Origin: Oscillospiraceae bacterium
Lineage (GTDB): Bacteria > Bacillota > Clostridia > Oscillospirales > Oscillospiraceae
DNA: 64,000 nt
Direction of reading: 5' to 3'
Assembly (NCBI GenBank): GCA_015068495.1
Contig: SVKL01000008.1
Span: forward strand, 13,892 to 77,891
Below, piece after piece: positions 26,957 through 57,801 of the stretch (its first letter is position 1; each line of letters opens with the position of its first letter). The notes beneath the pieces are model-generated. The model saw only the letters and a list, made by a program, of their open reading frames with translations. It was not told where the DNA came from and did not search any database. The translations under genes were made by a program, and so were the position numbers.

Positions 26957-26997
26957 ACACACGCAATATAATCCTGACAAGAAATTGTCGGGAATCA

Positions 26998-27083
26998 TAT
27001 CTCCGTCCATTTGCCTGAGAGATTCGGCTAACGCCTTGCACCTTCGGCACACAACTGAATGTGTTCTCCAGAGAGTCCTCCAC
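26998..27083 (-). ncRNA. Glycine riboswitch, single aptamer
   Basis: Minus strand GGACTCTCTGGAGA...GCCGAAGGTGCAA...AATCTCTCAGGCAAATGGACGGAGA carries the GGAGA, CCGAAG and CUCUCAGG core; sits in the glyA leader. Confidence 0.9.
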
Positions 27084-28215: not shown

Positions 28216-28291
28216 TGGTGGACTTGAGGAGATTCGAACTCCCGACCCCCACAATGCGAATGTGGTGCGCTCCCAACTGCGCTACAAGCCC
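28216..28291 (-). tRNA. tRNA-Ala (anticodon CGC), CCA encoded
   Basis: GGGCTTG...CAAGTCC-ACCA acceptor with G3:U70; anticodon stem CCACA-TTCGCAT-TGTGG; T loop TTCGAAT; 76 nt. Confidence 0.97.
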
Positions 28292-37622: not shown

Positions 37623-38837
37623 ATGATGGGCTCTGAAATGAAGGTCAAGGCTGTTGGCTTTTGTGATGGTGTCTCTGTTTCCGCTATTGCCCCGTTGATG
37701 AATGATTTGTCCGTTGATGACGTATCTGAATATGCTGTTTTTCCCGGCTTTTGTGATGTGCACGTGCATTTCCGAGAGCCGGGATTTTCTTATAAAGAGA
37801 CCATTGAAAGCGGTTCAAAGGCATCTGCGCGGGGCGGTTACACAGCGGTTTGTACAATGCCCAACTTAAACCCCGTGCCGGACAGCGTGGCACATTTGGA
37901 CGAGCAGCTGAAACTGATTGAGGAGCAGGCGGTGATTCACGTCTACCCCTACGGCGCGATTACAGTGGGTGAGAAAGGTGAGCTGCTTGCAGATTTAGAG
38001 GGTATGGCGCCCAACTGTATTGCTTTTTCCGATGACGGACGAGGTGTGCAGAGCGATGATATGATGCGGCAGGCTATGCGCCGTGCCAAGGCACTGGGCA
38101 AAATGATTGTTGCCCACTGTGAGGTAAACGAGCTGCTGAAAGGCGGCTATATCCACGATGGTCAGTACGCAGCGGCTCATAACCACAAGGGCATCTGCAG
38201 CGCCAGCGAGTACGAACAAATCGCAAGAGATTTGCGCCTAGTGAGGGAAATCGGCTGCGCCTACCACGTGTGCCACATCTCCACGAAAGAGAGTGTGGAG
38301 CTGATCCGGCAGGCGAAGGCGGAAGGCTTGGATGTGACCTGTGAAACCGGCCCTCACTATCTGACGATGGACGACAGCTTCCTGCAGGAGGACGGCAGAT
38401 TCAAAATGAATCCTCCTTTGCGGGATAAAGCTGACAGGGAAGCGCTGGTTGCCGGTATTGTGGACGGCACAATCGATATGATTGCCACTGACCACGCGCC
38501 CCACAGCGCAGAAGAAAAGAGCAAGGGCTTAGCCGGCAGCGCCTTCGGTGTGGTTGGTATTGAAACAGCCTTCCCGGTGATGTATACCCACTTGGTAAAG
38601 TCCGGCGTGATTACTCTTGAAAAGCTTATTGACCTACTGAGCAATAACCCCCGTAAACGGTTTGGTCTGCCGGCAGGAAATGATTTTACAGTGTGGAATC
38701 TGAGTAAAGAATTTACAGTAGACCCGGCGCAATTCCTGTCTATGGGTAAGGCGACGCCCTTTGCTGGCTGGAAGTTAAATGGTGAATGTTTGCTGACCGT
38801 CTGCGACGGCAAGGCAGTGTATAAATTGGAGGAATGA
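37623..38837 (+). CDS. pyrC: Dihydroorotase (type I)
   Basis: DVHVHFREPG, TMPN, FSDDG, HVCHIST, KMNPPLR, ATDHAPH. Confidence 0.94.
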   Translation: MMGSEMKVKAVGFCDGVSVSAIAPLMNDLSVDDVSEYAVFPGFCDVHVHFREPGFSYKETIESGSKASARGGYTAVCTMPNLNPVPDSVAHLDEQLKLIEEQAVIHVYPYGAITVGEKGELLADLEGMAPNCIAFSDDGRGVQSDDMMRQAMRRAKALGKMIVAHCEVNELLKGGYIHDGQYAAAHNHKGICSASEYEQIARDLRLVREIGCAYHVCHISTKESVELIRQAKAEGLDVTCETGPHYLTMDDSFLQEDGRFKMNPPLRDKADREALVAGIVDGTIDMIATDHAPHSAEEKSKGLAGSAFGVVGIETAFPVMYTHLVKSGVITLEKLIDLLSNNPRKRFGLPAGNDFTVWNLSKEFTVDPAQFLSMGKATPFAGWKLNGECLLTVCDGKAVYKLEE

Positions 38838-38840
38838 AAA

Positions 38841-41800
38841 ATGGCAAAGAGAACGGACTTAAAGAAAATTCTGATTATCGGCTCCGGTCCTATCGTAATC
38901 GGTCAGGCCGCTGAATTTGACTATGCAGGTACACAGGCTTGCTTGGCGCTGAAGGAAGAGGGCTACGAGGTTGTCCTGTGCAACTCCAACCCTGCAACCA
39001 TTATGACGGATACTACCATTGCCGACAAGGTGTATATGGAGCCTCTGACACTGGAATATGTGGCAAAGATTATCCGCTACGAGCGTCCCGATGCCATTCT
39101 GCCCGGCATCGGCGGACAGACCGGTCTGAATCTTGTTATGCAGCTGGAGAAGAAGGGCGTTTTGAAGGAATGCCGCGTGGAGCTGCTGGGTACTTCCAGT
39201 GAATCCATCGAGCGGGCTGAGGACAGAGAACTGTTCAAGGAGCTGTGCCAGTCCATCGGCGAGCCTGTCATTCCCTCCGAGATTACCTATTCTATCGAGG
39301 AAGCGAAAGCGGCGGCTAAGCGGATTGGCTATCCTGTGGTGCTTCGTCCTGCCTTTACCTTGGGCGGCACCGGTGGCGGCTTTGCATATAGTGAAGAAGA
39401 GCTGGTGGAAATCGGCTTAAACGCATTTAAGCTGTCTCCTGTGCATCAGGTGCTCATTGAGAAATCCGTCAAGGGTTATAAGGAAATCGAATTTGAGGTT
39501 ATGCGTGACGGCAACGATCACGCCATCACCATCTGCGGTATGGAAAACATTGACCCTGTAGGCGTCCATACCGGCGATAGCTTGGTGGTTGCGCCGATTA
39601 TGACTCTGAGCGACCACGATTTGAAGATGCTGAACGATTCTGCTATCAAGATCATCAAGGAATTGAAGATTGCAGGTGGCTGTAACGTGCAGTTTGCCCT
39701 GAATCCCAATAGCTCTGAATACTACCTCATTGAGGTAAATCCCAGAGTTTCCCGTTCTTCCGCTTTGGCATCCAAGGCTTCCGGCTATCCCATTGCCCGC
39801 GTAACGGCTAAAATTGCCGTGGGTATGGCGCTGGAGGACATTAAGATTGCCAACACCAACGCTGCTTTCGAGCCGAAGCTGGACTATGTCATTGCCAAGC
39901 TGCCCCGTTTCCCCTTCGATAAGTTCACCTCTGCAACCAACCTGCTGGGCACCCAGATGAAAGCCACCGGTGAGGTTATGGGTATCGGCTCCAATCTGGA
40001 AGAAGCGCTGTTAAAGGGTATCCGTTCTCTGGAAATCGGCGCAAACCACCTGTACCTGTCCAAGTTTGACAATATGAGCGTGGAGGAGCTGCTGGACTAC
40101 ATCAAGCAGTTCCGTTCCGATAACATCTTTGCTATTGCGGAACTGCTGTACCACGGTGTTTCTGTGGAGAAGATTCACGAAATTACACAAATTACACCCT
40201 ACTTCCTGGAATCCATTCGCAAGATTATCGATATGGAGGAAGTCCTTCGGGTTAAGGTAAACGACGTGGATGCCCTGAAGCAGGCAAAGGTTATGGGCTT
40301 CAGCGACAGATATGTTGCACGGCTGTGGAAGTGCGCAGAAATGGATGTTTACAAGCTGCGTAAGGCCAACAATATGTTCCCGGTATTCAAGATGGTGGAT
40401 ACCTGCCATACCGGTGCATACATTCCTTATTTCTACTCCTCCTACACCGGAGAGAACACCTCTGTTCTTACCGATAAAAAGAAAATTGTGGTGCTGGGCG
40501 CCGGTCCTATCCGTATCGGTCAGGGTGTGGAATTTGACTATTCCACCGTTCACTCTGTAATGACCATTCGGGATGCAGGCTACGAGGCCATCATCATTAA
40601 CAACAACCCCGAAACCGTTTCCACCGACTACACCACCGCTGACAAGCTGTACTTTGAGCCACTGACACCTGAGGATGTTATGAACATCATTGAGTTTGAG
40701 AATCCTGTGGGTGTGGTTGCATCCCTTGGCGGTCAAACGGCTATCAATCTTGCTCAGCCTTTGGATGACCGGGGTGTAAAGATTATCGGCACAGATTGCG
40801 CTGCCATCGACAGAGCAGAGGACAGAAATGCCTTTGAAAACCTGCTCAACGACCTGAACATTCCCCGGGCTAAGGGTCAGGCTGTTACCAAGCTGGAAGA
40901 CGGTATTGCCGCCGCAGCGGAGATCGGCTATCCTGTGCTGGTGCGTCCTTCCTTTGTGCTGGGCGGCCGGGCAATGCAGATTGTTGCCAACGAGCAGCAG
41001 CTGCGTCACTACTTGCGTACCGCGGTTGAAATTGACGAGGACAAGCCCGTCTTGGTGGATAAGTATATTGAAGGCCGTGAAGTGGAGATTGACGCCATTT
41101 GCGACGGCCGGGATGTGTTTGTTCCCGGCATTATGGAGCTGGTAGAGCGTACCGGCGTCCACTCCGGCGACTCCATTTCTGTCTATCCCACCTTCTCTAT
41201 TTCCAACAAGGTTAAGGGTATCATCCTGCAGTATGCCAAAAAGCTGGGCTTGGGCATCGGCATTGTGGGTCTGTTCAATATCCAGTTCATCGTGGATAAG
41301 GACGATAATGTGTTTATTATCGAGGTAAATCCCCGTTCCTCCCGTACCGTGCCGTTCCTGAGTAAGGCAACCGGCTATTCCTTGGCAGATATTGCCACCG
41401 AGGTTATTTTGGGCAAGAGCCTGAAGGAGCAGGGCCTGTTTGACATCTACCCCGATGAGAAGGATCGCTGGTATGCCAAAGCACCTGTGTTCTCCTTCAA
41501 TAAAATCCGCGGACTGGACGCTTATCTGTCACCTGAAATGAAGTCCACCGGCGAAGCCATCGGCTACGACAGCACGATGAACCGCGCTTTGTATAAGGCG
41601 CTGCAGGCCTCCGGTATGCACCTGCAGAATTATGGTACTGTGCTGGTTACCATTGCAGACAAGGATAAGGAAGAGGCCCTGCCTTTGATTCGCCGCTTCT
41701 ATCAGCTGGGCTTCAACATTGAAGCAACTGAGGGCACTGCGGACTTCTTGAAAGCAAACGGAATCCGTACCCACAAGCTGGGCAAGATCGGCGACGGCAG

Positions 41801-42008
41801 CGAAGAGATTCCCAATGCGCTGCGTCAGGGCCACATTGCCTACGTGATTAACACCAAAGACCCCGGCAGCAACGGCAGTGACGGTGTGCAGATCCGTCAG
41901 ATTGCCACCGAGCATAATGTTTCTCTGTTCACTGCGTTGGATACCGTAAAGGTGCTGCTGGACGTTTTGGAAGAAACTACGCTGACCATTTCTACCATTG
42001 ATGCTTGA
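38841..42008 (+). CDS. carB: Carbamoyl-phosphate synthase large subunit
   Basis: GSGPIVIGQAAEFDYAG, two ATP-grasp halves, IEVNPRVSRSS and IEVNPRSSRT, C-terminal MGS domain. Confidence 0.97.
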   Translation: MAKRTDLKKILIIGSGPIVIGQAAEFDYAGTQACLALKEEGYEVVLCNSNPATIMTDTTIADKVYMEPLTLEYVAKIIRYERPDAILPGIGGQTGLNLVMQLEKKGVLKECRVELLGTSSESIERAEDRELFKELCQSIGEPVIPSEITYSIEEAKAAAKRIGYPVVLRPAFTLGGTGGGFAYSEEELVEIGLNAFKLSPVHQVLIEKSVKGYKEIEFEVMRDGNDHAITICGMENIDPVGVHTGDSLVVAPIMTLSDHDLKMLNDSAIKIIKELKIAGGCNVQFALNPNSSEYYLIEVNPRVSRSSALASKASGYPIARVTAKIAVGMALEDIKIANTNAAFEPKLDYVIAKLPRFPFDKFTSATNLLGTQMKATGEVMGIGSNLEEALLKGIRSLEIGANHLYLSKFDNMSVEELLDYIKQFRSDNIFAIAELLYHGVSVEKIHEITQITPYFLESIRKIIDMEEVLRVKVNDVDALKQAKVMGFSDRYVARLWKCAEMDVYKLRKANNMFPVFKMVDTCHTGAYIPYFYSSYTGENTSVLTDKKKIVVLGAGPIRIGQGVEFDYSTVHSVMTIRDAGYEAIIINNNPETVSTDYTTADKLYFEPLTPEDVMNIIEFENPVGVVASLGGQTAINLAQPLDDRGVKIIGTDCAAIDRAEDRNAFENLLNDLNIPRAKGQAVTKLEDGIAAAAEIGYPVLVRPSFVLGGRAMQIVANEQQLRHYLRTAVEIDEDKPVLVDKYIEGREVEIDAICDGRDVFVPGIMELVERTGVHSGDSISVYPTFSISNKVKGIILQYAKKLGLGIGIVGLFNIQFIVDKDDNVFIIEVNPRSSRTVPFLSKATGYSLADIATEVILGKSLKEQGLFDIYPDEKDRWYAKAPVFSFNKIRGLDAYLSPEMKSTGEAIGYDSTMNRALYKALQASGMHLQNYGTVLVTIADKDKEEALPLIRRFYQLGFNIEATEGTADFLKANGIRTHKLGKIGDGSEEIPNALRQGHIAYVINTKDPGSNGSDGVQIRQIATEHNVSLFTALDTVKVLLDVLEETTLTISTIDA

Positions 42009-46352: not shown

Positions 46353-46369
46353 GTTTACAGTGATGAATA

Positions 46370-46443
46370 TCGTTCTTTGCGACTGACGGAAATGTGGAGC
46401 ACCACAAGGGACCAAAGAATGTAAAAGCCGACCGTCTGGGCGC
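46370..46443 (+). ncRNA. ZMP/ZTP (pfl) riboswitch
   Basis: P1 TTCTTTG/CAAAGAA, GCGACTGACGGA junction, P2 GTGG/CCAC, P3 GCCGACCGTCTGGGC whose loop can pseudoknot with GACGG; upstream of purE. Confidence 0.92.
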
Positions 46444-46478
46444 ATTTGACAGTAACCTTAGTCAAGTGCGCCCTTTTT
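46438..46478 (+). terminator. Expression-platform terminator of the ZTP riboswitch
   Basis: GGGCGCATTTGAC / GTCAAGTGCGCCC + TTTTT; the 5-prime arm overlaps P3. Confidence 0.85.
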
Positions 46479-46497: not shown

Positions 46498-46986
46498 ATG
46501 AAAAAAGTTGGCATTGTAATGGGCAGTGACAGTGATTTGCCCATCGTCCAAAAGGCAATTGATATGCTAAAGAGCCTTGAAATTCCTTATGAGGTGCACA
46601 TCTATTCTGCCCACAGAACGCCTGTTGAAGCGCGGGATTTTGCGCTCAATGCAAGAGTAAACGGTTTTGGAGCGATTATCTGTGCTGCCGGTATGGCGGC
46701 GCATTTGGCAGGCGCGATTGCCGCCAACACAACCCTTCCTGTGGTGGGAATTCCCTGCAAGGGTGGAATGATGGACGGAATGGACGCGTTGCTGTCTACA
46801 GTGCAGATGCCCACAGGTATCCCTGTGGCTACCGTCGCGATTAATGGTGCGGCCAATGCGGCGCTTCTGTGTGCACAAATTTTGGCTGTTGAAGACAAGG
46901 GGTTGGCTGAAAAATTGGATGCCAAACGCAAGAGCGATGCCGCTAAGGTCCTGCAAAAGGATGCGGATATTGCTGCAAATCTGTAA
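46498..46986 (+). CDS. purE: AIR carboxylase / N5-CAIR mutase
   Basis: MGSDSD, SAHRTP, AGMAAHLAG, PVVGIP, QMPTGIPVATV. Confidence 0.96.
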   Translation: MKKVGIVMGSDSDLPIVQKAIDMLKSLEIPYEVHIYSAHRTPVEARDFALNARVNGFGAIICAAGMAAHLAGAIAANTTLPVVGIPCKGGMMDGMDALLSTVQMPTGIPVATVAINGAANAALLCAQILAVEDKGLAEKLDAKRKSDAAKVLQKDADIAANL

Positions 46987-47028
46987 TTTCTGAGTTATAC
47001 ACTCACTATGATAAAGGAGAAATTGATT

Positions 47029-47715
47029 ATGGAAAAGAAGCTTATTTACACCGGTAAGACCAAAAATGTTTATGAACTGCCCAACGGTAACTGCCTGTTG
47101 CTGTTTAAGGACGACTGCACCGGTAAGGACGGTGTGTTTGATCCCGGTGAGAACGCCGTTGGCTTGACCATCGAGGGTGTAGGTGATGTAAACCTGCGTA
47201 TGTCCATTTACTTCTTCGAAAAAATCAATGCTGCCGGTATTAAGACCCACTATGTGTCTGCTGATTTGGCTAGCACCACTATGGAAGTTTTGCCCGCCAA
47301 GGTGTTTGGTAAGGGTCTGGAGGTTATCTGCCGTTGTAAAGCAGTAGGCTCCTTCTTCCGCCGCTACAATGAATATTGTACCGAGGGTCAGGACCTGCCT
47401 TTCTATGTTGAGACCACCTTCAAGAACGATGCACTGGGTGATCCTCTGGTTACCAAGGACGGTCTTGTTGATTTGGGCGTTATGACTGCAGAGCAGTATG
47501 ATTCTCTGAAGGCTCAGACACAGGCAATTACCAAGATCGTTGCCGATGATTTGGCAGCCAAGGGTTTGGATCTGTATGATATCAAGTTTGAATTCGGTTA
47601 CGACCCTGATGGCAACGTAATGCTCATTGATGAGGTTGCATCCGGCAATATGCGTGTCTATAAGGACGGTCAGTACATTGACCCCATGACCCTGAACAAG
47701 CTGTTCTTTGCCTAA
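47029..47715 (+). CDS. purC: SAICAR synthetase
   Basis: YTGKTK, FKDD, LEVICR, ETTFKND, DIKFEFG, LIDE; ATG 47029 after AAGGAG. Confidence 0.93.
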
Positions 47716-47738
47716 ATTCTGATTAAGGAGCTTGCCCC

Positions 47739-49163
47739 ATGGGAGGATTTTTTGGAGTTACATCCAAGGTCGATTGTATGATGGATGTATTTTTCGGTGT
47801 GGATTACCATTCTCATTTGGGTACTCGCCGCGGCGGTATGGCTGCGTGGGACCCGGAGATTGGTTTGCAGCGGAAGATTCACAGTATTGAAAATTCCCCG
47901 TTTCGCACCAAATTTGAGCATATTTTTGATGAGATGCAAGGCACCTCTGTTATCGGCTGCATCAGCGATACAGACCCCCAACCTATGCTGATTCGTTCCC
48001 ATTTGGGAACCTACGCCATTTCCACTGTCGGCGTTATCAACAATGCTGACGAGCTGATTCAGCAGGTGATGGACAACCACGGCGGTTACTTTGACGCAAT
48101 GACCGGTGGCAGAGTCAATTCCACTGAGCTGGTTGCGGCGCTGATTAACCGGAAAGAGAACTTCGTTGCCGGTATTCAGTATGCCCAATCCGTGATTGAC
48201 GGAACAGCGAATATTTTGATTCTTACCGATAAGGGCAGTTTGATTGCCGCCCGTGACCGTCTGGGCAGAATCCCCGTGCAGATCGGCAGGGACGAAAACG
48301 GATACTGCGCCTCTTTTGAGGAATTTGCATTTACCAAGCTGGGCTATGAAAAAGTATGTGAGCTTGGCCCCAGCGAAATTGTGGAGCTGACGCCGGATTC
48401 TATGACCCAGTTGGCTGCCCCCGGAGACAAGATGAAGGTCTGCGCCTTCCTGTGGAGCTACTATGGCTATCCTACCTCTACCTACGAGGGGATTAACGTG
48501 GAATCTATGCGCTACCGTAACGGCGCGACCATTGCCGAGCGGGATATGGAAAAAGGCCGCAGTATGGACATTGACTATGTAGGCGGTGTTCCCGACTCCG
48601 GCACACCCCACGCCATTGGCTATGCCAATCGGACGGGTAAGCCCTTTGCCCGGGCATTTATTAAATACACACCTACCTGGTCCCGTTCCTTCACCCCTGC
48701 CAAGCAGGCCGACCGGAAAAAGGTGGCGAAGATGAAGCAGATTCCTGTCCACGATTTGATTAAAGGCAAAAAGCTTTTGTTTGTGGACGATTCCATTGTC
48801 CGTGGCACCCAGCTGCAGGAAACGGTGGAATTCCTTTACGAAAACGGTGCGAAGGAAGTCCATATGCGGTCTGCCTGCCCGCCGATTATGTATGGCTGTA
48901 AATATCTGAACTTTTCCCGTTCTACCTCGGATATGGATCTCATTTCCCGCCGTGTGATTATGGAGCTGGAAGGTGAGGAAGGGTTCAAGCACATAGAGGA
49001 GTATGCCGACGGCAACACAGAGCGTGGCAAAAAAATGCGCCAGACTATCTGTGAGAAGTTTAAGTTTGCATCCTTAGGCTTCCAGACGGTGGACGGCGTT
49101 GTCAAGGCAATCGGCATTGAGCCTTGCAAGCTTTGCACCTACTGCTGGAACGGTAAAGAATAA
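47739..49163 (+). CDS. purF: Amidophosphoribosyltransferase, variant lacking catalytic Cys1
   Basis: PRT domain VPDSG, FVDDSIVRGT, ACPP and C-terminal CTYC; N-terminus MGGFFG. Confidence 0.93.
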   Translation: MGGFFGVTSKVDCMMDVFFGVDYHSHLGTRRGGMAAWDPEIGLQRKIHSIENSPFRTKFEHIFDEMQGTSVIGCISDTDPQPMLIRSHLGTYAISTVGVINNADELIQQVMDNHGGYFDAMTGGRVNSTELVAALINRKENFVAGIQYAQSVIDGTANILILTDKGSLIAARDRLGRIPVQIGRDENGYCASFEEFAFTKLGYEKVCELGPSEIVELTPDSMTQLAAPGDKMKVCAFLWSYYGYPTSTYEGINVESMRYRNGATIAERDMEKGRSMDIDYVGGVPDSGTPHAIGYANRTGKPFARAFIKYTPTWSRSFTPAKQADRKKVAKMKQIPVHDLIKGKKLLFVDDSIVRGTQLQETVEFLYENGAKEVHMRSACPPIMYGCKYLNFSRSTSDMDLISRRVIMELEGEEGFKHIEEYADGNTERGKKMRQTICEKFKFASLGFQTVDGVVKAIGIEPCKLCTYCWNGKE

Positions 49164-49177
49164 ATAAGGAGAAGCGT

Positions 49178-50230
49178 ATGGAACATAAGAATTCCCAGTC
49201 TGCCAGCTATGCTGCTGCCGGTGTGGACATTACCGCCGGCTATAAGGCTGTTGAACTGATGAAGAAGCATATCAAGCGCACAAAAAATGAGGGCTGCTTG
49301 GACGATGTTGGCGGCTTTGGCGGCTGCTTTGGTCTGAACATTGCCGGTATGGAAGAGCCTGTGCTGGTCTCCGGTACAGACGGCTGCGGCACAAAAGTCA
49401 AGCTTGCTATTTTAATGGACAAGCACGATACCATCGGTATTGACGCGGTGGCAATGTGCGTTAACGATATTATCTGCTGCGGCGCAAAGCCTTTGTTTTT
49501 CCTTGATTACATTGCTTGCGGTAAGAATTATCCCGAGAAAATCGCGGCCATTGTGGGCGGCGTAGCAGAGGGCTGCGTTCAGTCCGGCGCAGCGCTCATC
49601 GGCGGTGAAACTGCCGAGCATCCCGGCTTGATGCCGCTTGAAGACTATGACCTTGCAGGCTTTGCAGTTGGTGTTGTGGACAAGAAGAAAATTATCGACA
49701 ACACCCGTATGGCAGCAGGGGATGTGGTGATTGCGCTGGCATCTACCGGTATCCATTCTAACGGTTTCTCTCTGTGCCGTAAGGTGTTTGATATTGATAA
49801 CAACCCGGCAGAGCTGTATGTTGCCCGTGAGGAGTTGGACGGTAAGAGTGTTGCAGAAGCGTTGCTCGTACCTACACGTATCTACGTAAAGTCCATCCTT
49901 GCTCTGTTGGAGCAGGTGGATGTAAAGGGTATCTCCCACATCACCGGCGGCGGCTTTTATGAGAATATTCCCCGTTCCATCCCCGATGGCTTGGGTGCAG
50001 TAATCGAAAAGAATGCTGTTAAGGTGCTGCCTATTTTCGATATGATTGCCAAGACCGGCAATATCCCTGAGCGTGATATGTTCAACACCTACAATATGGG
50101 TGTGGGTATGAGCGTCGTGGTAAAGCCTGAGGAAGTAGAGAAGGCATTGGAAATCCTTACCGCCCACGGGGAAAATGCCTATGTGATCGGTAAGATTGTA
50201 GCCTCTGACGAGAAGATTACCATTGTGTGA
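49178..50230 (+). CDS. purM: Phosphoribosylformylglycinamidine cyclo-ligase
   Basis: YAAAGVDI, GTDGCGTK, AMCVND, GGETAEHPG, SHITGGG. Confidence 0.97.
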   Translation: MEHKNSQSASYAAAGVDITAGYKAVELMKKHIKRTKNEGCLDDVGGFGGCFGLNIAGMEEPVLVSGTDGCGTKVKLAILMDKHDTIGIDAVAMCVNDIICCGAKPLFFLDYIACGKNYPEKIAAIVGGVAEGCVQSGAALIGGETAEHPGLMPLEDYDLAGFAVGVVDKKKIIDNTRMAAGDVVIALASTGIHSNGFSLCRKVFDIDNNPAELYVAREELDGKSVAEALLVPTRIYVKSILALLEQVDVKGISHITGGGFYENIPRSIPDGLGAVIEKNAVKVLPIFDMIAKTGNIPERDMFNTYNMGVGMSVVVKPEEVEKALEILTAHGENAYVIGKIVASDEKITIV

Positions 50231-50238
50231 GGTAGGAA

Positions 50239-50835
50239 ATGGTGAAAGCGAGAATTGCTGTGCTGGTGTCCGGCGGCGGCACGAACCTGCAGGCGCTGAT
50301 TGACGCGCAAGGCAGCGGAATTATTCACAGCGGAGAAATCTGCCTTGTGATTTCCAATAATCGGGATGCCTATGCTTTGCAGCGCGCGGCAAATGCGGGA
50401 ATAGCCACCGAGGTTGTCCTGAAAAAGGAACTGGGCAGCCAAGCCGCATTTGAAGAGAAAATCAAAGAATTGCTCACCGAAAATAGGATTGACATCATTG
50501 TTCTTGCGGGCTTTATGTCCATTTTAAGTGAGGCGTTCACCTCCTGCTATCCCAAGCGGATTCTCAATGTCCACCCGTCGCTGATTCCGTCTTTTTGCGG
50601 TGAGGGCTTTTATGGTCTCCGGGTTCACGAGGCAGCGCTTAATTATGGCGTGAAGGTCACCGGCGCAACCGTTCACTTTGTTAACGAGATTCCCGACGGC
50701 GGTGAGATCATTCTCCAAAAGGCTGTGGAAATTCAGCCGGAGGACACACCTGAAACCCTGCAAAAACGGGTGATGGAACAAGCAGAATGGAAGATTTTAC
50801 CTGCCGCAGTTGAGCAGGTTTGCAGTATGCTGTGA
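50239..50835 (+). CDS. purN: Phosphoribosylglycinamide formyltransferase
   Basis: SGGGTNLQA, LAGFM, NVHPSLIP, GATVHFV..DGG. Confidence 0.96.
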   Translation: MVKARIAVLVSGGGTNLQALIDAQGSGIIHSGEICLVISNNRDAYALQRAANAGIATEVVLKKELGSQAAFEEKIKELLTENRIDIIVLAGFMSILSEAFTSCYPKRILNVHPSLIPSFCGEGFYGLRVHEAALNYGVKVTGATVHFVNEIPDGGEIILQKAVEIQPEDTPETLQKRVMEQAEWKILPAAVEQVCSML

Positions 50836-50851
50836 GAAAGGAATTTGCAAT

Positions 50852-51565
50852 ATGAATGTTTATGAAGTTGGCTCTCTTGCTGAGAAGCTGTCTACCAATG
50901 TGTATCCCGGCCGTGGCATTGTGTTAGGTGTAACTCCCGACGGCACTAAGTCTGTTGCTGCTTATTTCATTATGGGCCGCAGCGTCAATAGTCGCAACCG
51001 TGTGTTTGTACAGGAGCCGGACGGTATCCGCACCGAAGCTCATGATCCCAGCCTGATGAAAGACCCTCATCTGATTATTTACCATCCTGTCCGTGAAGCA
51101 GGCTGTGGTTTGATTGTTACCAACGGTGACCAGACCGATACCATTTGGGAATACCTTGCCAAGGGCGAAAGCTGGGAAGCTGCTCTGCGTACCCGTTGTT
51201 TCGAAGATGACGGCCCTAACTGGACACCTCGTATTTCCGGCTTGCTGGCAGGTGACGGAAGCTACAAGATGTCCATTTTGAAGTCTGCTGATGCAGAGGG
51301 CACAGCCTGCGCAAGATTTTTCTATGAGTATCCTGCAATCGCCGGACTGGGTCACTTTATCCACACCTATGTGTGCGATGGTAACCCCGTAATCCCCACA
51401 TTCCAAGGGGAGCCGGAGCGTGTGGCTATGGATAACGATATGGATGCCTTTGCGGAAATGCTGTGGAACAACTTGAATGAAGACAATAAAATCTCCCTGT
51501 TCGTCCGTTACACTGATTTGAAGACCGGCAGCTACGAGCAGAAGATTTACAACAAACATAACTAA
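50852..51565 (+). CDS. purO: Stand-alone IMP cyclohydrolase, PurO-like (Ntn fold)
   Basis: YPGRGI, YFIMGRS.NSRNR, LIIY, VTNGDQTD, FEDD.PNWTPRISG; ATG 50852. Confidence 0.85.
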   Translation: MNVYEVGSLAEKLSTNVYPGRGIVLGVTPDGTKSVAAYFIMGRSVNSRNRVFVQEPDGIRTEAHDPSLMKDPHLIIYHPVREAGCGLIVTNGDQTDTIWEYLAKGESWEAALRTRCFEDDGPNWTPRISGLLAGDGSYKMSILKSADAEGTACARFFYEYPAIAGLGHFIHTYVCDGNPVIPTFQGEPERVAMDNDMDAFAEMLWNNLNEDNKISLFVRYTDLKTGSYEQKIYNKHN

Positions 51566-51577
51566 GGAGTAGGGAAG

Positions 51578-52762
51578 ATGAAAGAGTTTGAACTGAAATA
51601 CGGCTGTAACCCCAATCAAAAGCCTGCAAAGATTTATATGCACGACGGCACCGACCTGCCCATCCAGATTCTCAACGGCCGCCCCGGCTTTATTAATTTC
51701 CTGGATGCCTTCAACTCTTGGCAGCTGGTGAAGGAGCTGAAGGAAGCTACCGGTATGTGCGCTGTTACCTCTTTTAAGCACGTTTCTCCTACTTCTGCCG
51801 CTGTTGGCAAGAAGCTGCCTATAGAGCTGAAAAAGGCTTGCTTTGTGGAAGATATCGAAGGCTTGGATGAGAATCCTTTGGCTTGCGCATATGCCCGTGC
51901 CCGTGGTGCAGACCGTCTGTGCTCCTTTGGCGACTGGGTGGCACTGAGTGACACCTGCGACGCGCTGACAGCCAAGCTCATTGCCCGCGAGGTATCCGAC
52001 GGCGTGATTGCTCCCGGCTACACCGATGAGGCGCTGGAGATTCTGAAGACCAAACGTGGCGGCAACTATAACGTAGTTGCTATTGACCCCAACTTCGTTC
52101 CTGCTGAACAGGAAACCAAGCAGGTGTTCGGTATTACTTTCCAGCAGGGCCGCAACAACTTCAAAATTGACAATGCACTTTTGGAGAACATTGTTACTGA
52201 TAATAAGAACTTTACCGAGGACGCAAAGACTGACTTGATCATCTCCCTGATTACCCTGAAGTACACACAGTCTAATTCCGTCTGCTTTGCTTATGACGGA
52301 CAGGCTATCGGTGTTGGTGCCGGTCAGCAGTCCCGTGTGCACTGCGTAAGACTTGCAGGCGGTAAGGCTGACACTTGGTTCCTCCGCCAGCACCCCAAGA
52401 CCTTGAATCTTCCTTTCCGCGAGGACTTGGGCCGTCCCGGCCGTGACAATGCCATCGACGGCTATATCAACGGCAACGAGGAGGATGTCTGCGCTGAGGG
52501 TATCTGGCAGAACTACTTTACCACCCGTCCCGAGCCTCTGACCGAGGCTGAAAAGCGTGCATTCTTGGATGCGCAGACCGGTGTTGCGCTGGGTTCTGAC
52601 GCTTTCTTCCCGTTCCCGGACAGTATTAAGCGTGCTAAAGCCTCCGGTGTTTCCTACGTCGCTGAGCCCGGCGGCTCTATCCGTGATGACCTTGTGATTG
52701 CTGAGTGCAATAAGAATAATATGGTTATGGCATTCACCGGAATGCGTCTGTTCCACCACTAA
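51578..52762 (+). CDS. purH: AICAR transformylase lacking the IMP cyclohydrolase domain
   Basis: LKYGCNPNQ, FKHVSP, KYTQSNSV, GAGQQSRVHC, SDAFFPF, GMRLFHH; no MGS-like N-terminal domain. Confidence 0.92.
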   Translation: MKEFELKYGCNPNQKPAKIYMHDGTDLPIQILNGRPGFINFLDAFNSWQLVKELKEATGMCAVTSFKHVSPTSAAVGKKLPIELKKACFVEDIEGLDENPLACAYARARGADRLCSFGDWVALSDTCDALTAKLIAREVSDGVIAPGYTDEALEILKTKRGGNYNVVAIDPNFVPAEQETKQVFGITFQQGRNNFKIDNALLENIVTDNKNFTEDAKTDLIISLITLKYTQSNSVCFAYDGQAIGVGAGQQSRVHCVRLAGGKADTWFLRQHPKTLNLPFREDLGRPGRDNAIDGYINGNEEDVCAEGIWQNYFTTRPEPLTEAEKRAFLDAQTGVALGSDAFFPFPDSIKRAKASGVSYVAEPGGSIRDDLVIAECNKNNMVMAFTGMRLFHH

Positions 52763-52837
52763 AATACCTTTGCCACACCGTCTTTTGCGGTGTGGCAATC
52801 GGTCTGTTTTACGAATCTGACATTTTGGAGAGTATCT

Positions 52838-54106
52838 ATGAAAATATTGGTTGTTGGCGGTGGCGGAAGAGAACATGCCATCATTAAAAAACTGAAAGAG
52901 AATAAGACAGTTACAGAAATTTTTGCAACCCCCGGCAATGGCGGTATTGCCAAGGATGCTACCTGTGTAGACATCGGCGCAAAGGAGATTGATAAAATTG
53001 TTGCCTTTGCAGTTGAGAATGCCATTGACTATGCGGTGGTTGCTCCCGATGACCCTCTGGTGCTGGGTTGCGTAGACGCATTGGAGGAGAAGGGGATTCC
53101 TTGCTTTGGACCTCGCGCCAATGCTGCCATTATTGAAGGCAGTAAGGTTTTTTCCAAAAACCTGATGAAAAAATATAATATTCCCACTGCAGCGTATGAA
53201 GTGTTCACCGATATGGATGCGGCAATTTCCTATTTGGAAACTGCTCCAATTCCTACGGTCATCAAGGCTGACGGACTTGCATTGGGCAAGGGCGTTATTA
53301 TTGCGGAAACCCGTGAGGATGCCAAGGCTGCTGTGAAATCTATGATGTCCGATAAGGTCTTCGGCAAAAGCGGTGACCAGATTGTCATTGAGGAATTCCT
53401 CACCGGTCCTGAGGTGTCTGTGCTTGCCTTTACCGACGGCAAGACAGTGAAGCCTATGATTTCCTCTATGGACCATAAGCGGGCAGGGGATAACGATACA
53501 GGCCTCAACACCGGCGGCATGGGCACGGTTGCTCCCAACCCCTACTACACTGCCGATATTGCTAAGGTGTGTATGGAAACCATTTTCCTGCCTACCATCG
53601 CCGCAATGAATGCCGAGGGCCGTACCTTTAAGGGCTGCTTGTACTTTGGCTTGATGCTCACCCCCAACGGCCCTAAGGTTATTGAGTACAACTGCCGTTT
53701 CGGCGACCCGGAGACGCAGGTGGTGCTGCCGCTGCTGGAAAGTGATCTGCTCACCGTTATGCAGGCAACCACCAACGGCACCTTGGCAGAAACCGAGGTT
53801 AAATTTGCCGACAAGAACGCCTGCTGCGTGATTATGGCGTCCAAGGGTTATCCCACCGCCTACGAAAAGGGCTTTGAGATGACCGTTCCGGAGGCAATTT
53901 GGAATAATGTCTATGTGGCAGGCGCTGCATTAAAGGACGGAAAGCTTCTGACAAACGGCGGCCGTGTCCTTGGCGCAACTGCTGTTGCTGACACCTTAGA
54001 GAACGCCATTAACGAGGCTTATAAAATGGTAGAAACCATTCATTTTGACAATGCTTATTATCGTCACGATATTGGCGCGAAGGCTATGAAAGCCGGGAGG
54101 AATTAA
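52838..54106 (+). CDS. purD: Phosphoribosylamine--glycine ligase
   Basis: VVGGGGREHA, KADGLALGKGV, EYNCRFGDPE, TNGGRVL; ATG 52838. Confidence 0.97.
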   Translation: MKILVVGGGGREHAIIKKLKENKTVTEIFATPGNGGIAKDATCVDIGAKEIDKIVAFAVENAIDYAVVAPDDPLVLGCVDALEEKGIPCFGPRANAAIIEGSKVFSKNLMKKYNIPTAAYEVFTDMDAAISYLETAPIPTVIKADGLALGKGVIIAETREDAKAAVKSMMSDKVFGKSGDQIVIEEFLTGPEVSVLAFTDGKTVKPMISSMDHKRAGDNDTGLNTGGMGTVAPNPYYTADIAKVCMETIFLPTIAAMNAEGRTFKGCLYFGLMLTPNGPKVIEYNCRFGDPETQVVLPLLESDLLTVMQATTNGTLAETEVKFADKNACCVIMASKGYPTAYEKGFEMTVPEAIWNNVYVAGAALKDGKLLTNGGRVLGATAVADTLENAINEAYKMVETIHFDNAYYRHDIGAKAMKAGRN

Positions 54107-54108
54107 CA

Positions 54109-57100
54109 TTGGTTTATAGAGTATATGTAGAGAAAAAAGAAGCGCTTGCAAACGAAGCAAAGGCTCTTTTGAACGATGCCCGCAACCTGCTGGGGATTAA
54201 GGCGCTGGAGAATGTTCGCCTGCTGAACCGCTATGATGCAGAAAATATTACAAAAGAGCTGTTCGATTATGCAATCGATACCGTGTTTTCTGAGCCCCAG
54301 CTGGACATTGCCACAGCTGAATATGAGTTAGCAGGCGCTACGGTGTTTGCCGTTGAGCCGCTGCCCGGTCAGTTTGACCAGCGAGCCGACTCCGCTGCTC
54401 AGTGTATTCAGATTATTTCTCAAGGTGAGCGTCCGCTGATTCGCTCCGCTAAGGTGTACGGTCTGTACGGCAAGCTGACAGAGGAAGAAATCACCGCGAT
54501 TAAAAAACACGTGATTAACCCTGTGGAATGCCGTGAAGCAGAGCTGACCCTGCCCGAAACGTTGAAAGCAGATTACGCTATCCCGCAGTCCGTTGCTACC
54601 GTTGACGGCTTCATCGGATTAGACGAAAAGGGCCTTTCTGATTTGCTGGACAAGCTGGGTCTTGCGATGGATCTGGACGATTTGAAGTTCCTGCAGAACT
54701 ACTTCCGTGACGAAGAAAAGCGCGACCCTACGATTACCGAAATCCGTGTTGTGGATACCTACTGGTCTGACCACTGCCGTCACACTACCTTCTCCACCAT
54801 CATTGACGATGTAAAAATTTCCGATCCCGCAGTGGCTGCTGCCTACAAGCGTTATTTGGATGCCCGTGTGGAAGTCTATGGAGAAGAGAAGGCTGCAAAG
54901 CGTCCTCAGACACTGATGGATATTGCCACTATCGGCGCAAAGACTTTGAAGAAGCGTGGATTGCTGCCCGAGCTGGACGAGAGCGAGGAAATCAACGCCT
55001 GCTCTATCCACGTTACTGCAAAGGTAAATGGCGAAGATCAGGACTGGCTGCTGATGTTCAAGAACGAGACCCACAACCATCCCACCGAGATTGAGCCTTT
55101 TGGCGGCGCAGCCACCTGTATCGGCGGCTGTATCCGTGACCCTTTGTCCGGCCGTGCATACGTCCATCAAGCAATGCGTGTTACCGGCGCAGCTGATCCC
55201 CGCAAGCCTCTGAATGAGACCATTCCCGGCAAGCTGCCCCAGCGTAAGCTGTGTCAGACTGCCGCAGCCGGCTATTCCTCATACGGCAACCAAATCGGTC
55301 TTGCTACCGGTCACGTTGCAGAAATCTATCACGATGGCTACGCCGCAAAGCGCTTGGAGTGTGGCGCAGTTGTTGGCGCAGCGCCTGCCTACAACGTACG
55401 CCGTGAGCGTCCCGCAGCCGGCGATGTGGTTGTGCTGCTGGGTGGCCGTACCGGCCGTGACGGTATCGGCGGCGCTACCGGTTCTTCCAAGAGTCACAAT
55501 ATGAAATCCCTGACCACAATGGCTTCCGAAGTCCAAAAGGGTAATGCTCCCGAGGAACGGAAGATTCAGCGCTTGTTCCGGGATAGCGCTGTTACCCGTT
55601 TGATTAAGCGCTGCAACGACTTTGGCGCAGGCGGTGTGTCTGTTGCTATCGGTGAGTTGGCTGCCGGTCTGCAGATTGACTTGGATGCTGTTCGCAAGAA
55701 GTATGATGGCTTGGACGGTACCGAAATCGCTATCTCCGAATCTCAGGAGCGTATGGCAGTTGTGGTTGCAGCTGAGGATGCGGATACCTTTATCGCAGCA
55801 GCCCAGAAAGAAAATCTGGAAGCTTATCGTGTGGCTGTGGTCACCGAAGAAGAAAGAATGGTGATGGTCTGGAAGGGTCAGACAGTTGCAAATCTGTCCC
55901 GCGCATTTTTGGACACCAACGGCGCCAGCAAGCATACCAAGGTTGACGTTACCGAAAAGGACCTGTCCGTGCTGAGCAACGCCCTGTACGGCAGCCTGCG
56001 TGAGATGGCAGGGGATTTGAAGACTGCCAGCCGCAGAGGCCTTGTGGAGCGTTTTGACGGTAGTATCGGCGCAGGCTCTGTGCTGATGCCCTTTGGCGGC
56101 AAAACACAGACCACTCCCGCCCAAGCAATGGCAGCTGTGCTGCCCGTCCTGCCCGGTCAGGAAACCAGTCAGGGCAGTGTAATGGCTTGGGGTCTAGATC
56201 CCGATATGATGAGCGTGGATCCTTACACCGGCTCCCGCGCCGCCATCTATACTTCTATGGCAAAGCTGGTTGCAGCCGGCGCTGACTATAAGAAAGCTTA
56301 CCTGACCCTACAGGAGTTCTTTGAAAAGCTGAAAGCTGAGCCTGCCCGCTGGGGCAAGCCCTTTGCAGCGCTCCTTGGCGCACTGGATGCCCAGCTGGAG
56401 CTGGGTGCTGCTGCCATCGGCGGTAAGGATTCTATGTCCGGTTCCTTTATGGATATGGACGTGCCGCCCACGCTGATTTCTTTTGCAATCGCTCCCATTG
56501 ATAAGGAGCAGGTGCTCACTCCCGAATTTAAGACCGCCGGCAATCCGGTTTACCTCTTCGGACCTACCGATGAGACCGCTGAGAGCCAAAAGCAGGCTTG
56601 GGAATACTTCCACCAGCTGCACCTTGCCGGTAAAGTCAACGCCGGCTGGGCGGTGGAGAATGGCTTGGGCGAAGCGGTGATGAAGATGTCCTTCGGTAAC
56701 CGCATCGGTTTTGCCTCCTGCGGCGCTGTGGGCGAGGAATGGCACAAGAACCTCTACGGCTTTATTGTGGCTGAGCTGACCGAAGATGTTGACCTGCCCG
56801 GCGTGCTGAAGATTGGCGAAACCACTGCCGAAGCAGCAATTGTTTTGGACGGTGACAGCGCATCTATCGACGAGCTGCTTGCCATCAATGAAGGCATTTT
56901 GGAGGATGTATATACCACTGTTGTTCCTGAGGATAAGGGTCAGATTCCTGCCTTTAACTACACCGGCACGGTTGCGAAGGCACCTGCTGTAAAGTGTGCA
57001 AAGCCCAAGGTGCTGATCCCTGTATTCCCCGGTACCAACTGTGAGTTTGACTCCGCCCGTGCGGTTATTGCAGCAGGCGCTGACGCAGAAATCGCCGTAA

Positions 57101-57801
57101 TTCGCAACCTGACCGCTGATGATGTTGCCAAGAGCGTGGAAAGCGTAGCTGCGAAGATTGCAGACAGCCAGATGATTTTCATTCCCGGCGGTTTCTCCGG
57201 CGGTGACGAGCCGGACGGCTCTGCCAAGTTCATTACCGCCTTCTTCCGCAACCCTGCCATCAAGGAGCAGGTGACAAAGCTGCTGGAAGAGCGGGACGGC
57301 TTGATGTGCGGCATCTGTAACGGCTTCCAAGCGCTGATTAAGCTGGGCTTGGTGCCTTACGGCAAGATTATTGATACCGACGAGAATTGCCCCACCTTGA
57401 CCTTCAATACCATTTCCCGTCACCAGTCCAAAATTGTCCGTACCCGTATCGCATCCAACAAGTCGCCTTGGCTGAGGCTGATGAATGTGGGTGACGTTGT
57501 GAATGTTCCCATTTCCCACGGCGAGGGTCGCTTCTATGCATCTGAGGAATTGGCAATGAAATTGGCTGAAAACGGTCAGATTGCCACCCAGTATGTGGAC
57601 TTGGACGGCAATCCCACTATGGATACCGCTTTCAACCCCAACGGCTCTCTGTTTGCTATCGAGGGTATTACCTCTCCCGACGGCAGAGTCATCGGTAAGA
57701 TGGGTCACAGCGAGCGTATCGGCGCAGGCCTTTACAAGAACGTACCTGGTAACTACGATATCCGTATGTTTGAAGCCGCAGTTAAATATTTTAAGGGCTA
57801 A
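54109..57801 (+). CDS. purL: Fused large FGAM synthase (PurS-PurL-PurQ)
   Basis: WSDHCRH, KNETHNHPTEIEPFGGAAT, DFGAGG, ISESQERM; GATase FPGTNCE, GICNGFQ, GHSER. TTG start. Confidence 0.97.
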   Translation: MVYRVYVEKKEALANEAKALLNDARNLLGIKALENVRLLNRYDAENITKELFDYAIDTVFSEPQLDIATAEYELAGATVFAVEPLPGQFDQRADSAAQCIQIISQGERPLIRSAKVYGLYGKLTEEEITAIKKHVINPVECREAELTLPETLKADYAIPQSVATVDGFIGLDEKGLSDLLDKLGLAMDLDDLKFLQNYFRDEEKRDPTITEIRVVDTYWSDHCRHTTFSTIIDDVKISDPAVAAAYKRYLDARVEVYGEEKAAKRPQTLMDIATIGAKTLKKRGLLPELDESEEINACSIHVTAKVNGEDQDWLLMFKNETHNHPTEIEPFGGAATCIGGCIRDPLSGRAYVHQAMRVTGAADPRKPLNETIPGKLPQRKLCQTAAAGYSSYGNQIGLATGHVAEIYHDGYAAKRLECGAVVGAAPAYNVRRERPAAGDVVVLLGGRTGRDGIGGATGSSKSHNMKSLTTMASEVQKGNAPEERKIQRLFRDSAVTRLIKRCNDFGAGGVSVAIGELAAGLQIDLDAVRKKYDGLDGTEIAISESQERMAVVVAAEDADTFIAAAQKENLEAYRVAVVTEEERMVMVWKGQTVANLSRAFLDTNGASKHTKVDVTEKDLSVLSNALYGSLREMAGDLKTASRRGLVERFDGSIGAGSVLMPFGGKTQTTPAQAMAAVLPVLPGQETSQGSVMAWGLDPDMMSVDPYTGSRAAIYTSMAKLVAAGADYKKAYLTLQEFFEKLKAEPARWGKPFAALLGALDAQLELGAAAIGGKDSMSGSFMDMDVPPTLISFAIAPIDKEQVLTPEFKTAGNPVYLFGPTDETAESQKQAWEYFHQLHLAGKVNAGWAVENGLGEAVMKMSFGNRIGFASCGAVGEEWHKNLYGFIVAELTEDVDLPGVLKIGETTAEAAIVLDGDSASIDELLAINEGILEDVYTTVVPEDKGQIPAFNYTGTVAKAPAVKCAKPKVLIPVFPGTNCEFDSARAVIAAGADAEIAVIRNLTADDVAKSVESVAAKIADSQMIFIPGGFSGGDEPDGSAKFITAFFRNPAIKEQVTKLLEERDGLMCGICNGFQALIKLGLVPYGKIIDTDENCPTLTFNTISRHQSKIVRTRIASNKSPWLRLMNVGDVVNVPISHGEGRFYASEELAMKLAENGQIATQYVDLDGNPTMDTAFNPNGSLFAIEGITSPDGRVIGKMGHSERIGAGLYKNVPGNYDIRMFEAAVKYFKG

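Follow-up and report, generated by a model that had tools for sequence, protein, structure and literature searches.

The window analysed here, a 64,000-nucleotide stretch of contig SVKL01000008.1 from an Oscillospiraceae bacterium, carries within a purine biosynthesis operon a gene for a paralogue of the amidophosphoribosyltransferase PurF that has lost the catalytic Cys1. This protein, hereafter called Fx, is probably a glutaminase-dead PurF paralogue of the [4Fe-4S] type which, judging from its sequence, would make phosphoribosylamine (PRA) from phosphoribosyl pyrophosphate (PRPP) and free NH3 and in this way feed its own purine operon. The gene and its parts are located as follows:

47739-49163, + strand: Cys-less PurF paralogue Fx, 474 amino acids (aa), from alignments and profile searches
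47725-47730, + strand: ribosome-binding site AAGGAG, 8 nucleotides (nt) 5' of the ATG, from sequence reading
47739-48422, + strand: remodelled N-terminal nucleophile (Ntn) domain, class-II amidotransferase-like, residues 1-228, from alignments, AlphaFold and Foldseek
48423-49160, + strand: type-I phosphoribosyltransferase (PRTase) domain, from alignments and family conservation

Fx was aligned by HMMER with the Bacillus subtilis PurF of known structure (1ao0; E 3e-42) and by MAFFT with seven canonical PurF proteins of related genomes, and the same residue changes were found in both cases. Going from B. subtilis PurF to Fx (alignment with 1ao0), the glutamine site reads:

Cys1 replaced by Gly2
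His25-Arg26-Gly27 replaced by His26-Leu27-Gly28
GHVRYATAGG, with Arg72/Tyr73, replaced by GCI and an 8-residue gap
His-Asn102-Gly103-Asn replaced by Thr-Val97-Gly98-Val
Ser-Asp127-Thr-Glu replaced by Asn-Ser128-Thr-Glu

The changes from HRG to HLG, from HNGN to TVGV and from SDTE to NSTE, together with the loss of the GHVRYST region, had been described in the initial annotation and are recovered in both alignments. Its statement that the whole glutamine site is missing goes slightly too far: Cys1, Arg26, the Arg-Tyr loop, the Asn and the Asp are indeed gone, but the oxyanion Gly (Gly102 in Escherichia coli) is still there, being the only one kept among the residues numbered Arg26, Arg73, Asn101/Gly102 and Asp127 in the E. 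coli enzyme. Fx has neither a nucleophile nor the oxyanion Asn, and both residues that would anchor glutamine are missing; without them, glutamine hydrolysis of the Ntn type is not possible. The protein has no propeptide and starts at Met-Gly; the canonical paralogues of related genomes read HEEC followed by GVFG at the corresponding position and contain LQHRGQE. Met1, placed before a Gly, would be expected to be removed, making Gly2 the N-terminus of Fx.

The synthase half of the protein has kept its motifs. Fx contains VPDSG and the PRPP loop DDSIVRGT (residues 350-357; 48786-48809), and the PRPP loop LLFVDDSIVRGTQ and the pyrophosphate (PPi) loop GGVPDSG align with those of 1ao0 and are invariant in the Fx family. 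Cys235, Cys387, Cys466 and Cys469 (codons at 48441, 48897, 49134 and 49143) align with the [4Fe-4S] ligands Cys236, Cys382, Cys437 and Cys440 of 1ao0 and are 92-100% conserved across the family, in agreement with the earlier reading that the PRPP motifs and four likely Fe-S cysteines remain. The PRTase domain also presents a flexible loop, KYTPTWSRSF...Q...R...K, and a 27-aa family-specific insert, and the Ntn domain a DYHSHLG motif and, in the NSPFRTKF region, 10 inserted residues specific to the family. Profile matches are partial: Fx scores 160.5 bits on TIGR01134 (cut-off 350), with profile positions 80-380 alone matched, and the Pfam matches are limited to weak ones with GATase_7 and Pribosyltran.

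The 5' end of the gene is well defined. The clear ribosome-binding site and ATG reported initially are there, and the first codons, ATG GGA GGA TTT TTT GGA, give MGGFFG. An upstream start exposing a Cys at the N-terminus, one of the objections foreseen in the initial annotation, is ruled out by an in-frame TAA (47724-47726) that overlaps the ribosome-binding site and lies four codons before the ATG; none of the four intervening codons (GGA GCT TGC CCC) could serve as a start. The TGC located two codons 5' of the ATG was considered as a hidden Cys and rejected, as no start reaches it and its register differs from that of Cys1. In two related genomes (L004, 10096-11514; L012, 9685-11109) the gene starts with TTG, at the same position as the ATG here and with a good ribosome-binding site, and because of such TTG starts the start of Fx is possibly misplaced by gene callers.

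Fx belongs to a large and conserved family. Among its 240 listed close homologues, which come from independent assemblies, 239 (469-474 aa) share the MGG[FV]FG start, confirming that a sequencing error at codon 2 is unlikely; the sole exception is a 461-aa sequence without an N-terminus. When all 1.84 billion representative proteins were scanned with Fx by HMMER, 572 representatives were retrieved at E <= 1e-30. The full-length members (33-62% identity) start with M-[GSTA]-G-x-x-G and have DY[HN]SH[LM]G where canonical enzymes have LQHRGQ; they share with the window protein a shortened glutamine loop, the flexible-loop motif KYTP(T/G)W and a CTYCW C-terminus, and the PRTase residues and PRPP-site motifs are kept down to 33% identity. 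At residue 2, the 78 representatives with an intact N-terminus have G (53), S (16), T (5) or, once each, A, D, K and C. The one with C, the metagenome representative P0127 (414 aa), was examined as a Cys-bearing Fx and discarded: it combines an AsnB-like MCGFVG N-terminus with the C-terminal 300 residues of an Fx, and is probably a chimeric contig or assembly. A metal site of the H-x-H type in DYHSH is also unlikely, as some family members have Asn or Gln in place of His24 (Asn in about 15% of the representatives). Both domains are under strong purifying selection: relative to orthologues of other species, the ratio of non-synonymous to synonymous substitution rates (dN/dS) lies around 0.08-0.14 over residues 1-228 and around 0.04-0.09 over residues 229-474, values that are rough because synonymous sites are near saturation. 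Members of the family occur in the cultured Evtepia gabavorous KLE1738, Agathobaculum and Muribaculum intestinale, and are labelled in databases as plain 'amidophosphoribosyltransferase'.

Fx appears to be the only PurF form of its genome, an assembly of 1.77 Mb in 40 contigs (92.9% complete) whose closest relatives are labelled Faecousia/Oscillospiraceae. The TIGR01134 scan of this genome gave two matches, Fx and a 642-aa open frame. The latter, first assumed to be GlmS and then considered as a second PurF, was rejected, its 630-aa open reading frame (ORF) being AsnB by Pfam. Neither TIGR01134 nor tblastn with three canonical PurF queries, which retrieved Fx and AsnB only, revealed a further PurF homologue in this 92.9%-complete genome, and a long-type PurF from Bacteroidota used as tblastn query had no match in the source genome. 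Fx is likewise the only PurF form in a 99%-complete genome of the same genus (G057).

The distribution of the MGGFFG-type clade, which the initial annotation had suggested surveying, turned out to be twofold, Fx being the sole PurF in some genomes and paired with a canonical one in others. Among 121 genomes of the window's family, about 81 encode a canonical PurF (79 of them scoring above the cut-off, two truncated), about 23 of these having both forms; about 26 have Fx only, some of them being 99-100% complete with a full pur operon, and about 14 have neither. Fx is also the only form in the cultured E. gabavorous KLE1738, in metagenome-assembled genomes (MAGs) assigned to Faecousia and to Lachnospiraceae, and in an uncultured, Christensenella-labelled MAG, where it was matched on a contig of 1.05 Mb. 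When the phylum was sampled evenly, 16 of 301 genomes proved to carry the Fx family. Outside the phylum, the closed genome of M. intestinale (Bacteroidota; CP021421) encodes an Fx located 24 nt 3' of purL.

The genes surrounding Fx form a complete purine operon preceded by a riboswitch:

46369-46448, + strand: ZMP/ZTP riboswitch aptamer, 5' of purE, controlling the operon (Rfam RF01750, 60.8 bits, gathering threshold 39)
46498-46986, + strand: purE, aminoimidazole ribonucleotide carboxylase/mutase (Pfam AIRC, 200 bits)
47008-47715, + strand: purC, phosphoribosylaminoimidazole-succinocarboxamide synthetase (Pfam SAICAR_synt, 132 bits)
49178-50230, + strand: purM (Pfam AIRS/AIRS_C)
50239-50835, + strand: purN (Pfam Formyl_trans_N)
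50810-51565, + strand: PurO-type inosine monophosphate (IMP) cyclohydrolase, exact start uncertain (Pfam IMP_cyclohyd, 200 bits)
51578-52762, + strand: purH, restricted to the aminoimidazole carboxamide ribonucleotide (AICAR) formyltransferase part (Pfam AICARFT_IMPCHas, profile positions 76-310)
52790-54106, + strand: purD, consumer of PRA (Pfam GARS_N/A/C)
54109-57801, + strand: purL, large formylglycinamidine ribonucleotide synthase with an intact glutaminase domain (Pfam GATase_5, 279 bits)

The order is thus ZTP riboswitch, purE-purC-Fx-purM-purN-purO-purH-purD-purL, with Fx in the place expected for purF. Fx lies between purC and purM in all eight loci compared (the source genome and seven related ones). 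In the both-form genomes, it is Fx that occupies the slot in purE-purC-Fx-purM-purN-purO-purH-purD (7/7 examined), the canonical purF being elsewhere or in tandem: it sits immediately 5' of Fx in the same operon in one genome (G034), and Agathobaculum stercoravium (G421) has such a tandem pair as well. In PurL, the glutaminase Cys (GICNGFQ) and His/Glu (MGHSE) are kept in the alignment with PurQ/PurL structures, so that glutamine is still used at step 4 of the pathway. The final two steps of purine synthesis are split between the archaeal-like PurO-type cyclohydrolase and a PurH limited to the AICAR formyltransferase, a pair that is kept in the seven related operons.

In the reaction that we propose, the PRTase domain of Fx would combine PRPP and NH3 into PRA and PPi, i.e., the NH3-dependent half-reaction of PurF, and the PRA would pass to PurD within the ZTP-riboswitch-controlled operon. 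The dead Ntn domain would most likely serve both as lid of the PRTase site and as the way into it, and would support oligomer assembly. NH3-dependent PRA synthesis is the simplest reading because the PRPP-site motifs are intact and a complete riboswitch-controlled pathway lies downstream. The ammonia-only PRA synthase put forward in the initial annotation is supported by the operon slot, the sole copy, the intact PRTase and Fe-S motifs and the conserved N domain, from which we infer both the use of NH3 and the role of that domain. The colon and the rumen are ammonia-rich habitats, in which an ammonia-dependent Fx would be workable, and an Fe-S cluster fits with a strict anaerobe.

The N domain of Fx is under constraint. 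Between orthologues of seven both-form genomes, pairwise identity is 0.69 in the N domain of Fx and 0.77 in its C domain; the canonical PurF proteins of these genome pairs give 0.60 and 0.63. The N domain of Fx thus diverges less than its canonical counterpart and is not decaying. An AlphaFold model built from an alignment of 28 sequences with at least 65% identity predicts this domain with pLDDT (predicted local distance difference test) values mostly of 80-95 and an Ntn-type order of strands and helices. Foldseek searches with Fx placed 1ao0 first (E 3e-21), followed by 1gph, the Arabidopsis and E. coli PurF proteins, and then the glutaminase domains of GlmS and EgtC.

Other nucleotide biosynthesis enzymes of the source genome show a similar tendency. 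The window contains carB (1055 aa; 38841-42008), with pyrC (37623-38837) upstream, and no carbamoyl-phosphate synthetase (CPSase) small-chain domain, i.e., no carA, was detected by domain search in the whole 92.9%-complete genome. In the sample of 121 genomes, carB occurs without carA in 11 of the 21 Fx-only genomes having carB, versus 6 of 72 PurF-bearing genomes, a comparison between related genomes that is suggestive and does not amount to a statistical test. GuaA (G000, contig C19, 22156-23157; L097, 781-1782) is a 333-aa protein corresponding to the ATP-pyrophosphatase/dimerisation part, without the glutaminase domain, and no glutaminase gene is found beside guaA, whose upstream neighbour encodes a GNAT acetyltransferase. 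The proteins with a class-I amidotransferase fold in the whole genome are only HisH (L098, 2828-3448), located within seven co-directional ORFs resembling a his operon (HisH alone checked with Pfam), and a C26 peptidase (L099, 2511-3170). The N-terminal domain of CTP synthase (PF06418) was not found in the 92.9%-complete source genome; pyrG could be part of the unassembled 7%, or else CTP is produced by another route. The combination of carB without carA, GuaA without glutaminase and Fx suggests that nucleotide synthesis has moved, at the level of the lineage, towards the use of ammonia as nitrogen donor.

Several points weigh against this interpretation of Fx. The argument for ammonia use is built on features that are missing. 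A canonical purF could in principle sit in the unassembled part of the source genome, given its completeness. In the phylum sample, 13 of the 15 other Fx carriers also have a canonical PurF, and in M. intestinale Fx coexists with a 629-aa, Cys-bearing PurF of the long type. Because a Cys-bearing PurF usually coexists with Fx outside the window's family, Fx need not be the main source of PRA everywhere; it is likely an ancient paralogue, found as a rule together with a glutamine-using PurF, that has become the sole form in part of the Oscillospiraceae, the source genome included. The association with the loss of carA is uncorrected for shared ancestry and stays suggestive. PurL (in the same operon), AsnB and HisH are intact as glutamine enzymes, so that glutamine has not been abandoned as a donor in general and the shift would be partial. 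In the AlphaFold model, the PRTase half has pLDDT values of only 30-50, which makes the channel and the pocket unreadable. Finally, the N domain has conserved motifs of its own (DY[HN]SH and the PFRTKF insert) that a scaffold would not obviously need.

This last point bears on the suggestion, made initially, that the N domain is kept as a scaffold. Its predicted Ntn fold and strong conservation agree with such a role, but 'mere scaffold' may understate it, considering these motifs and a conservation exceeding that of the canonical domain. The remodelled domain might instead be a re-purposed site for ammonia capture or gating, or a sensor of a nitrogen-status or purine-pathway ligand controlling the PRTase site. 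We regard this idea as tentative and rather doubtful; it would explain the conservation of DY[HN]SH and PFRTKF, the above-canonical conservation, and the maintenance of Fx beside PurF as a differently regulated isozyme.

A more distant alternative, which we consider unlikely, is that Fx contributes the PRTase half of a system in two parts and that its nitrogen comes from a partner (a further glutaminase or amidase, or another Pur enzyme handing it over directly), or from another donor bound in the remodelled N domain, and not from bulk ammonia. An N domain conserved beyond what is expected of a passive relic, with its own motifs and 10-aa insert, would fit this scheme, as would the position of Fx next to purL in Muribaculum and its frequent presence alongside, sometimes in tandem with, a Cys-bearing PurF. 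However, there is no unassigned gene in the operon, nor does any such gene regularly accompany Fx in the seven related loci and in that of Muribaculum, and the genome has very few glutaminase-fold proteins (HisH, the C26 peptidase, the PurL domain and AsnB). Nor does any conserved position stand out as a new nucleophile or metal site, residue 2 being G, S, T, A, K or D and His24 being Asn in about 15% of the representatives.

It is also improbable that Fx makes no PRA at all, being instead a pseudoenzyme, a regulator or a PRPP enzyme with another acceptor, with PRA supplied by a missed purF or a side route. The TIGR01134 score far under the equivalog cut-off, the family-specific inserts in both domains, the coexistence of a true PurF in most Fx genomes outside the window's family and the incompleteness of the source genome are all compatible with this view. 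Yet the PRPP and PPi motifs and the Arg/Lys of the flexible loop are invariant in the family, the Fe-S ligands are almost as well conserved, and Fx holds the purC-purM slot in every locus compared. Moreover, the Fx-only genomes of the family, among them those 99-100% complete, have a full pur operon with Fx as their only PurF homologue, and a nine-gene riboswitch-controlled pathway deprived of its first step would not persist. That Fx is a sequencing or assembly error, a wrongly placed start or a pseudogene can be set aside almost entirely in view of the shared N-termini, the low dN/dS and the in-frame stop, the five independent active-site changes being moreover common to members down to 33% identity.

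Ammonia-dependent synthesis of PRA by Fx can be compared with several known systems. The closest is the B. subtilis-type PurF (EC 2.4.2.14; 1AO0/1GPH; TIGR01134), the best match of Fx in both sequence (E 3e-42) and fold (E 3e-21), which has the same arrangement of Ntn and type-I PRTase domains, the cluster cysteines, VPDSG and DDSIVRGT, and whose slot in the pur operon is the one occupied by Fx. Fx differs from it by an identity of only about 26%, by the absence of a propeptide and of Cys1, by the replacement or deletion of Arg26, Arg72/Tyr73, Asn102 and Asp127, and by inserts of 10 and 5 aa in the N domain and of 27 aa near the C-terminus. Amidotransfer on free ammonia, where it is plentiful, is known from the NH3-dependent NadE, from AsnA and from the archaeal two-subunit GMP synthase devoid of its glutaminase; in these enzymes, the glutaminase domain or subunit is wholly absent, whereas Fx has retained a glutaminase domain that would be catalytically dead but is conserved.

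The Bacteroidota long-type PurF (629 aa in M. intestinale; L105, 643-2532, - strand) resembles Fx in scoring below the TIGR01134 cut-off (80 bits). Unlike Fx, it has a propeptide (MEPLKHE followed by CGV) and keeps HNRGQE, GHLRYSTTG and SDT; as both its Cys1 nucleophile and the motifs of its glutamine site are preserved, it is probably glutamine-dependent. By sequence inspection only, the gene adjoining it in Muribaculum resembles that of a glutamate-synthase small subunit.

The chemistry assumed for Fx has a precedent in E. coli PurF mutants altered at Cys1, which, according to Mei and Zalkin (1989; as cited in PMC3261824), lose the glutamine-dependent activity but keep the NH3-dependent one; they are the laboratory equivalent of the activity proposed for Fx. 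Each of these mutants has a single residue changed, in an enzyme that is free of the cluster and whose glutamine site is otherwise intact, whereas in Fx the whole site has been remodelled and fixed by selection family-wide. No published description of a natural Cys-less bacterial PurF was found in the literature searched; the nearest published case is a Ser-for-Cys paralogue that was set aside as not being PurF in an archaeal survey (PMC3261824). What is known is therefore the NH3 chemistry, from mutants, and what is new is a natural, widespread and uncharacterised Cys-less PurF that can be the sole copy in its genome.

If Fx works as proposed, many abundant Clostridia of the gut and rumen would draw on free ammonia instead of glutamine for the committed step of their purine synthesis, and many Bacteroidota would possess a second, ammonia-fed isozyme. 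Nucleotide supply would then be tied directly to luminal ammonia, and glutamine analogues like 6-diazo-5-oxo-L-norleucine (DON), azaserine and acivicin would be expected to have no effect on this purine step. Thousands of entries labelled 'amidophosphoribosyltransferase' would give metabolic models a wrong, glutamine-consuming stoichiometry. Fx would also represent a natural, family-wide case of an Ntn amidotransferase domain outlasting its catalysis. The cultured carriers E. gabavorous, Agathobaculum and M. intestinale make these predictions directly testable.

Elsewhere in the window, a glycine riboswitch aptamer (26993-27081, - strand, 55.6 bits) and a tRNA gene (28219-28291, - strand) were also detected.

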